A stretch of DNA of 4,316 bases from a virus (taxonomy: Duplodnaviria; Heunggongvirae; Uroviricota; Caudoviricetes): the IMG/VR virus record IMGVR_UViG_2671181094_000004; one strand, given 5' to 3'. Shown one piece after another: positions 1-4,316 of the stretch. The translations under genes were made by a program, and so were the position numbers. The notes under the pieces were generated by a model, which was given only the letters and a program-made list of their open reading frames with translations, was not told the DNA's origin and searched no databases. Every line of letters begins with the position of its first letter. Positions within the stretch are counted from its first letter, which is position 1.

Positions 1-2
1 AC

Positions 3-269
3 TGTTCAGCAGATTATCAGGCGCAACTGAAGCGGCATAATCTGCGTGGAAGTATGAGCGCAAAAGGTTGCTGCTACGATAATGCCTGCGTGGAAAGCTT
101 CTTTCATTCGCTGAAAGTGGAATGTATCCATGGAGAACACTTTATCAGCCGGGAAATAATGCGGGCAACGGTGTTTAATTATATCGAATGTGATTACAAT
201 CGGTGGCGGCGGCACAGTTGGTGTGGCGGCCTCAGTCCGGAACAATTTGAAAACAAGAACCTCGCTTAG
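3..269 (+). CDS. insF: IS3 transposase OrfB (InsF-type DDE transposase), C-terminal fragment; 5' partial, starts before the window
   Basis: The frame is open from position 3 to the TAG at 267-269. The translation [47 protein letters not shown]...[16 protein letters not shown] matches my memory of the IS3 OrfB C-terminus, including the conserved E of the DDE triad in CVESFF. The listed ORF 54-269 is only the part after an internal Met. Confidence 0.85.
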
Positions 270-299
270 GCCTGTGTCCATATTACGTGGGTAGGATCA
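270..299 (+). repeat. IS3 right terminal inverted repeat
   Basis: The terminal ~30 bp end in ...gggtaggatca. The reverse complement TGATCCTACCCACGTAATATGGACACAGGCC has the IS3-family TG...CA terminus. The exact IR length was not measured against the left end, which is not in the window. Confidence 0.7.
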
Positions 300-455
300 C
301 ATACCGTCATGAGCGACATGCTTATATTCCCTTCCTTCCATAAACGATTTTTCCCGGGCCTTTTTTAACGTACCTTTTTTTATTCCTTTCAGCGCAATTA
401 ACTGCTCTTCGGATACCCATTTGCCGGGAGAGACAATCATGATTACTTCGCTCAT
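297..455 (-). CDS. Excisionase-like small DNA-binding protein (Xis family candidate), C-terminally truncated by the IS3 insertion
   Basis: ATG at 455-453 to TGA at 299-297 gives 52 codons by manual translation: MSEVIMIVSPGKWVSEEQLIALKGIKKGTLKKAREKSFMEGREYKHVAHDGM. The W...TLKKARE...GREY pattern resembles lambdoid Xis proteins (lambda Xis has ...RRWVRE...DGREYLF). The stop codon is the last 3 nt of IS3, so the native C-terminus is missing. The RBS is weak. The ORF is absent from the supplied track, presumably below its length cutoff. Confidence 0.45.
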   Translation of the reverse strand: MSEVIMIVSPGKWVSEEQLIALKGIKKGTLKKAREKSFMEGREYKHVAHDGM

Positions 456-3092: not shown

Positions 3093-3284
3093 TTAAAGAC
3101 CTGCCGGGATTTCGATATTATCCTGGTGAATAACTTTATCGACCGGGTAACAGTTACCGGGAATTTTCTGTTCGGTTGCTGCAGTCATACACTCCTGCAT
3201 TGTCCTGTGAACACTGACTGCAATATCAACTGGCTCTCCGGAAACAAGAAAAACTGTCAGAACAAGCGCAAATGCTGAATTCAT
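3093..3284 (-). CDS. Small protein (63 aa) with an N-terminal hydrophobic segment (possible signal peptide or membrane anchor) and two Cys in the C-terminal half; function unknown
   Basis: The ATG at 3284-3282 overlaps the upstream gene's TGA (3283-3281) as ATGA, and AAGGA lies ~10 nt upstream. The protein is MNSAFALVLTVFLVSGEPVDIAVSVHRTMQECMTAATEQKIPGNCYPVDKVIHQDNIEIPAGL. The longer track ORF (81 aa from 3338) has no better start context. Confidence 0.6.
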   Translation of the reverse strand: MNSAFALVLTVFLVSGEPVDIAVSVHRTMQECMTAATEQKIPGNCYPVDKVIHQDNIEIPAGL

Positions 3285-3469
3285 TGTGCACATCCTTTTG
3301 GCATCAGACGTAAACGAGCCAGCATTGAAACAATGCATATTTTATTTAATAGCTCCCGTTCTTGTTTTCTCTTGTTAATGGCATCTTCAGTAAATACAGG
3401 GTTACTGATAGTGACACCAATTTCAAAACAACCTTCAGACGTATTAACGTTTGGTAATAACGTTTTCAT
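3281..3469 (-). CDS. Small early-region protein (62 aa), RacC-like by position immediately upstream of the exonuclease gene; identity not verified
   Basis: The ATG at 3469-3467 has a strong SD (GAGGA) 8 nt upstream. The protein is MKTLLPNVNTSEGCFEIGVTISNPVFTEDAINKRKQERELLNKICIVSMLARLRLMPKGCAQ. The 97-aa track ORF starts at a GTG (3574) with no SD, so the ATG start is preferred. Its stop overlaps the next gene's start (ATGA), indicating translational coupling. Confidence 0.65.
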   Translation of the reverse strand: MKTLLPNVNTSEGCFEIGVTISNPVFTEDAINKRKQERELLNKICIVSMLARLRLMPKGCAQ

Positions 3470-3830
3470 TATCGCGTCCTCAACAATGAATTTTGTGATG
3501 CAGTGCCTGGTGCCTCCAGGTGACGTTAACCAGTTAACAATTAACGCCGGATACAGAGAATCCACCCATAACACTGTTTTTGGTTTTAACTGTTCCGCGT
3601 GCGCTTAGCCGCATTCACCGCATCACAAAATTCACTTTAAAAACGGCGGCAGAGCAGTCACGGAGTAAAACTGATACCGCCAAACGTCACCAGAAAATTG
3701 ATAACAGAGGGCGTTGCAGCGGGGTTGTCACTTAAGCGTATGGTCAACCTGACAACTCGGTGTCCTCAACGGGGAAGGAATAACCCCGCCATACTTACCG
3801 CCGCGCCATTTCGCGGGTTGCCACAACCGG

Positions 3831-3971: not shown

Positions 3972-4040
3972 ATGACTAAAGAAGAATTTGTCTCTTATAT
4001 TTTTGATAAAACGGTTGAGGTAATGACTCCAACTTATTGA
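3972..4040 (+). pseudogene. 5' remnant of a divergently transcribed gene, disrupted by IS1 after codon 16; the reading frame runs into IS1 and stops at 4038-4040
   Basis: AGGA at 3961-3964 lies 7 nt upstream of the ATG at 3972. The native codons give MTKEEFVSYIFDKTVE; IS1 sequence begins at 4019, and the remaining codons (VMTPTY, then stop) are IS1-derived. The identity of the original gene cannot be determined from 16 residues. Confidence 0.55.
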
Positions 4041-4316
4041 TAGTGTTTTATGTTCAGATAATGCCCGATGACTTTGTCATGCAGCTCCACCGATTTTGAG
4101 AACGACAGCGACTTCCGTCCCAGCCGTGCCAGGTGCTGCCTCAGATTCAGGTTATGCCGCTCAATTCGCTGCGTATATCGCTTGCTGATTACGTGCAGCT
4201 TTCCCTTCAGGCGGGATTCATACAGCGGCCAGCCATCCGTCATCCATATCACCACGTCAAAGGCCGACAGCAGGCTCAGAAGACGCTCCAGTGTGGCCAG
4301 AGTGCGTTCACCGAAG
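4019..4316 (-). mobile_element. IS1 insertion sequence (partial; continues beyond the window end), InsB-proximal end facing the prophage
   Basis: ggtaatgactccaacttattgatagtg from 4019 matches the IS1 terminal inverted repeat (GGTAATGACTCCAACTTATTGAT). The downstream sequence encodes the InsB C-terminus on the minus strand. The 9 bp adjacent outside are aacggttga (4010-4018); the target-site duplication cannot be verified. Confidence 0.9.
4034..4315 (-). CDS. insB: IS1 transposase InsB, C-terminal fragment; 5' partial, starts beyond the window end
   Basis: The frame is open from the window end to the TAA at 4036-4034. The translation ...[75 protein letters not shown] matches my memory of the IS1 InsB C-terminus. 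Residues encoded by 4256-4315 differ at a few positions from the IS1 copy I remember, so this is an IS1 variant. Confidence 0.85.

Follow-up and report, generated by a model that had tools for sequence, protein, structure and literature searches.

Genes and insertion elements at the locus

The window, by which we mean the whole stretch of 4,316 nucleotides that was analysed, is the reverse complement, base for base, of an entire draft contig of Escherichia coli (CXYS01000097.1, assembly GCA_001269125.1), and it is bounded by fragments of insertion sequence repeats: the last 299 bp of an IS3 on the left (1-299) and the first 298 bp of an IS1 on the right (4019-4316). As the contig ends inside each element, neither the far side of IS3 nor the region beyond IS1 can be read from the window. 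Between the two elements lies one leftward early operon, encoded entirely on the minus strand. It comprises the DicF RNA (3644-3695; a full-length match to Rfam RF00039 at 72.5 bits), which lies upstream of dicB (3281-3469; DicB Pfam match), followed by ydfD (3093-3284; Pfam match, DUF1482), an exonuclease gene (528-2999) and the 5′ two-thirds of an excisionase-like gene, xis (300-455; DUF1233/PF06806). With DicF, dicB and ydfD in a leftward operon and with integration next to rspB, the prophage is of the Qin-like lambdoid type; rspB and rspA flank it in the sister contig and in all three of the related chromosomes introduced below.

The exonuclease of 823 amino acids is exactly that of the E. 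coli entry WP_053290155.1 and matches PF16473 at 225.7 bits; it is composed of YdfE_N and YdfE_C together with a C-terminal Rv2179c-like 3′-5′ exoribonuclease domain (residues 642-813), and its relatives carry the RefSeq name 'exonuclease'. The load of insertion sequences had raised the suspicion of a Shigella origin, which was rejected since the proteins are assigned to E. coli in the source. This exact sequence is on record from the present contig only, and the cluster to which it belongs at 90% identity has 23,183 members. On the plus strand, the IS1 end cuts at 4019 into a short open reading frame (3972-4040, MTKEEFVSYIFDKTVE…); by position alone, this frame appears to correspond to a 66-residue hypothetical protein, WP_000159335.1 (L002 8759-8959), with which related prophages are annotated.

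The sequences with which the window (contig L011) was compared were a sister contig of 432,769 bp from assembly GCA_041330615.1 (L012), a Logan contig from SRR27235296 (L018), and three related E. coli chromosomes in which xis is intact (L001, which is strain F1005, L002 and L021). The sister contig and the Logan contig were found by looking up the 47-residue product that starts at an internal ATG, which is the form that gene callers had used; the contig of the window itself was returned as well. There is one mismatch between the sister contig and the window over the 4,316 positions, and the IS3 and IS1 junctions are both common to the two.

Positions 1-299 (plus strand) hold the 3′ part of orfB, the transposase gene (ORF 3-269, with matches to the integrase-core domains rve_2 and rve_3), together with the right terminal inverted repeat (approximately 260-299, ending ...GGATCA). 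There are no mismatches between this segment and the last 299 bases of the 1258-bp IS3 of F1005, which is labelled 'IS3-like element IS3 family transposase' in RefSeq, with a 'programmed frameshift' noted for this near-identical copy. The complete IS3 of the sister contig is also 1258 bp long and differs from the F1005 copy at two positions, and its genes carry HTH_Tnp_1, and HTH_21 together with rve. The termini of the element are of the form TG...CA and read TGATCCTACCCAC... and TGATCTTACCCAG...; on direct comparison 28 of the 40 terminal positions match. A repeat search seeded with exact 9-base matches did not report these terminal repeats, which are imperfect and contain no such seed.

The breakpoint in xis and the far side of IS3

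The minus-strand reading frame at 297-455 encodes 52 amino acids (MSEVIMIVSPGKWVSEEQLIALKGIKKGTLKKAREKSFMEGREYKHVAHDGM) followed by TGA. Its score with the putative excisionase profile PF06806 (DUF1233) is 69.5 bits, where the cut-off is 22, but the match spans only profile positions 1-47 of 70; the product ends at residue 52 and the C-terminal segment of the domain is absent. All 52 residues are identical to the start of the 83-residue protein WP_000005552.1. At the DNA level, it can be seen that the window is identical to two intact alleles through ...CATGACGGTATG, down to position 300, and that past this point it continues as TGATCCTACCCACGTAATATGG..., which belongs to the right inverted repeat of IS3, whereas the intact alleles continue as CCATGGGATAACAGTCC.... 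The alignment thus breaks at 299/300, which bears out the sequence-only reading that the xis frame runs open to position 300 and takes its TGA from the tca at 297-299. These are the terminal three bases of the element, and since the right end of IS3 begins with 5′-TGA on the xis coding strand, translation stops immediately after Met52. On that strand the IS3 end reads TGATCCTACCCACGTAA..., giving an instant stop in this frame and a stop after no more than 5 or 10 codons in the other two; the IS3-supplied stop codon is a trivial consequence of the end sequence. The Met52 codon itself (300-302, CAT on the plus strand and ATG on the xis strand) is one copy of the target-site duplication.

The IS3/xis junction was confirmed in three contigs, namely the window, the sister contig and the Logan contig, and its presence in the last two, which are independent assemblies, argues that it is not an assembly artefact. 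A 141-base query across the junction found no single-piece match in 5,426 complete E. coli genomes; in 12 complete-genome records the whole query was covered as two pieces lying 362-476 bp apart. In F1005, the one of these 12 records that was inspected, IS3 (L001 3042-4299) lies outside xis, in the integrase arm-binding region of a related prophage. That copy lies between …AGTT and GATT…, without a matching 3-bp duplication, suggesting that the site was rearranged or suffered a deletion. Likewise, an exact 33-base pattern for the junction had no matches in the GTDB species representative genomes. The junction is thus documented in draft or short-read-derived assemblies only.

The far side of the element can be read in the sister contig. 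Here IS3 occupies 8142-9399, with one ATG before it at 8139-8141 and another after it at 9400-9402, and the native continuation of xis, CCATGGGATAACAGTCC..., follows directly after IS3 and the second ATG. Duplications of 3 bp are typical of IS3 itself, and in the sister genome the duplication is seen directly. When IS3 and one ATG were deleted in silico, an 83-residue reading frame identical to WP_000005552.1 was recovered. Taken together, the ATG duplication and the contiguous 3′ end of xis in this contig show that the insertion was a simple one and that no deletion took place. The sequence-only reading had looked to the far side of IS3 for the displaced 3′ portion of xis and a 3-bp duplication (CAT on the plus strand), and both are present in this near-identical genome. 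It had also held that the remainder of xis and the genes beyond it were separated or lost: they are indeed separated, by 1258 bp, but they are not lost, as int and the junction with rspB are retained in the sister contig. We infer that the genome from which the window derives has the same far side.

Elements of the IS3 family move by copy-and-paste transposition and leave short target duplications (PMC11708052). On the proposed model, the 1258-bp IS3 would have entered xis at codon 52/53, in a Qin-like lambdoid prophage next to rspB, by simple transposition of the copy-out/paste-in kind, duplicating the target triplet ATG. The frame would then halt directly after Met52 at the IS3-derived TGA, and the 3′ end of xis, int and the junction between prophage and chromosome would be pushed 1.26 kb away without being deleted. 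In the genome of the window, the predicted order on the far side is the IS3 left end (…GCTGGGTAAGATCA), ATG, and then CCATGGGATAAC… leading into the 3′ end of xis. With the far side taken from the sister assembly, we consider it highly probable that a simple IS3 insertion at codon 52/53 explains the truncated xis gene.

A different course of events would be an IS3-associated deletion or rearrangement that, in the genome of the window, removed or relocated the 3′ end of xis, int and the attachment site. The window contig stops inside IS3, and rearrangement is known in the region, since the IS1 at the contig end lacks a target duplication in the sister contig; the IS3 in the int region of F1005 likewise lacks a matching 3-bp duplication. 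In the sister contig, however, which has the same IS junctions and differs from the window at one base in 4,316, the 3-bp duplication is perfect and the 3′ end of xis, int and rspB are contiguous. We therefore regard a deletion or rearrangement as very unlikely, and favour the simple insertion.

The truncated product and its possible effects

The intact xis gene is 252 bp long and encodes the 83 residues of WP_000005552.1 in the three E. coli chromosomes L001, L002 and L021, in each of which the gene order is exonuclease gene, xis and tyrosine integrase gene, adjoining rspB. The same order of xis, int and rspB is found in the sister contig, with IS3 and IS1 interposed. Protein searches returned full-length relatives of 82-89 residues from Escherichia, Cronobacter, Klebsiella, Lelliottia and Silvania, and when 18 of these were aligned, all 18 continued past residue 52, where a number of positions are near-invariant (P53, D55, N56, S57, C59, F60, I66, D67 and I70) within the motif PWDNSPCFYN..EID.WI. 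Phages gave the same picture: every one of the 153 phage records with a match covers at least 80% of the 83 residues, and the isolated phages HannyBb, mEp460_ev081, Tritos and PhiR42_1 carry xis at 98.8% identity. In the alignment to full-length genes that had been proposed as a check, homologues thus extend approximately 31 residues past the break, and the claim that IS3 truncates xis stands, the product having 52 residues in place of 83 and losing 31.

An NMR structure from Klebsiella pneumoniae described as a 'putative excisionase' (PDB 2KVV) aligns to residues 7-73 and is the top structural match for the intact protein as modelled by AlphaFold, with a mean pLDDT of 75. The excisionase role of the family is itself putative, coming from annotation and from the similarity to 2KVV. 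The model contains a strand at 13-15, helices at 16-23 and 29-36, and strands at 44-46 and 59-62 followed by a helix at 63-72, and the last two of these elements lie beyond the cut. The 52-residue product is accordingly predicted to keep the N-terminal strand and the helix-turn-helix. Missing from it are the second strand of the wing, the C-terminal helix, the basic tail and the motif that is best conserved across the family. Judging from conservation and a model of medium confidence, the product has very probably lost any excisionase activity. The window reading frame is a truncated member of the family and, in effect, a pseudogene.

We also considered whether the insertion might have a regulatory consequence, either because IS3 supplies an outward promoter or a terminator at the end of the exonuclease-xis operon, or because the 52-residue helix-turn-helix fragment still binds DNA and hinders the excision of related prophages. 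IS3-family ends carry partial promoter elements, and the fragment retains the model strand at 13-15, the helices at 16-23 and 29-36 and the strand at 44-46. However, consensus scans found no sigma-70-like promoter and no intrinsic-terminator-like site at or near either IS3 junction, with counts for both equal to the shuffled expectation. Moreover, the IS3 transposase genes run toward xis, and in this convergent arrangement any effect would be limited to antisense read-through; the upstream region of the operon has, besides, been lost to IS1. The suggestion that IS3 influences the end of the adjacent operon is therefore unsupported, and a regulatory consequence of either kind appears very unlikely. 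It is similarly doubtful, to the point of being speculative, that the fragment might still be made, bind the excisionase sites of this prophage and of related, co-resident lambdoid ones, and so act as a dominant negative lock on them, or that selection might have favoured xis::IS3 and int::IS1 because they hold the dicF-dicB-exonuclease module in the host.

The least credible explanation is that the allele is naturally short, or that the protein natively ends here, and that the reading frame adjoins IS3 by coincidence. It could draw on the many database entries of 45-56 residues named 'excisionase family protein, partial', but the genes behind the entries inspected are broken off by contig ends and run on as ...ATGC or ...ATGCC like the intact gene, complete homologues are all of approximately 83 residues with a conserved motif past residue 52, and the stop codon lies within IS3 sequence, so that the breakpoint alignment and the alignment of 18 relatives already refute it. 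Truncation by a simple IS3 insertion remains the reading that we prefer.

Partial entries required care in another respect. Eight contigs encoding exactly the 52-residue product were first taken to be further copies of the junction, and all of them proved to be cut by contig ends. Likewise, we considered an insertion or mosaic hotspot at this codon and rejected it, as partial products occur at all lengths between 47 and 56 residues, on comparable numbers of contigs. When a truncated protein is looked up by its exact sequence, most matches are genes ended by contig edges.

Many other disruptions of xis in E. coli were seen in the protein search, among them a fusion to an IS1 end after His49, two different fusions after Gly51 and further fusions to insertion sequences (the chimeric or truncated entries are P0011, P0026, P0047, P0048, P0052, P0058 and P0061). 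A further fusion tail (…KRLVRTVLIFTESSDQLS) is repeated at two sites among the xis chimeras. The many chimeras and truncations indicate that xis has been disrupted repeatedly and independently, which fits recurrent decay.

State of the prophage and comparison with known systems

Two further lesions can be seen in the sister contig. At 9533-11590 the integrase gene is split by an IS1 (9822-10589) with a 9-bp target duplication, CTGAAGTCG, and removal of this IS1 in silico gives an integrase reading frame of 426 residues. As removal of the insertion sequences restores the reading frames of both xis and int, with target duplications intact, both recombination genes were hit by separate, simple insertions. 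The sister contig retains the junction of the prophage with rspB, rspA and ynfA. The second lesion is the IS1 that corresponds to the end of the window contig (L012 3655-4422). This copy has no 9-bp target duplication, its flanks being AAAGTACAGGATTTA and TCAACCGTTTTATCA, and its neighbours are an AraC-family regulator gene, a DUF523/DUF1722 gene and lysis genes, where related prophages have ydfC, ydfA, repressor genes and replication genes. The lack of a target duplication and the altered neighbouring genes point to an IS1-mediated deletion or recombination, and this implies that the same event probably also cut the dicF-dicB-exonuclease-xis operon from its native upstream region.

The sequence-only reading had presented the xis lesion as direct evidence of a defective, immobilised remnant. 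Its view of the prophage as a remnant holds, but xis::IS3 taken alone keeps all of the native sequence. Stronger evidence for a defective prophage is provided, as far as the sister sequence allows, by int::IS1 and by the IS1 copy without a target duplication. On the arrangement of the sister genome, we conclude that the prophage is a grounded remnant in which xis::IS3 is one of three lesions.

IS3, the DUF1233-type excisionase and the Qin-like prophage at rspB are all known entities, and the inactivation of a prophage recombination gene by an insertion sequence that leaves a target duplication is ordinary, textbook decay of a cryptic prophage. The practical consequence is one of annotation: the reading frame at 297-455 should be recorded as an excisionase pseudogene disrupted by IS3 and not as a small protein, and the Qin-like prophage should be listed as a grounded remnant. 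Beyond annotation the locus has little significance, except as a clean example of the stepwise inactivation of a prophage by insertion sequences.

Compared with DUF1233/PF06806 'putative excisionase' proteins, the window product shares residues 1-52 with the 83-residue protein and its gene occupies the same slot between the exonuclease gene and int, but the product lacks the 31 C-terminal residues, and with them the conserved motif, the second strand of the wing, the last helix and the basic tail. The IS3 is that of E. coli, being identical over 299 bp in the window and, in the sister genome, 1258 bp long with imperfect terminal repeats of approximately 40 bp, orfA and orfB with rve domains, TG...CA termini and a 3-bp target duplication; the element itself is unchanged, and what is particular to the present case is only its insertion site in the xis gene of a Qin-like prophage. 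The closest comparison for the prophage as a whole is Qin of E. coli K-12, which lies at the same site next to rspB, has the same order of DicF, dicB, ydfD and exonuclease gene, and has also decayed through insertion sequences. In K-12 Qin, ydfE is truncated next to IS2 and intQ is a pseudogene. The prophage of the window differs from it in having a full-length exonuclease of 823 residues and an xis gene, and in the nature of its lesions, namely xis::IS3, int::IS1 and a deletion bounded by IS1.
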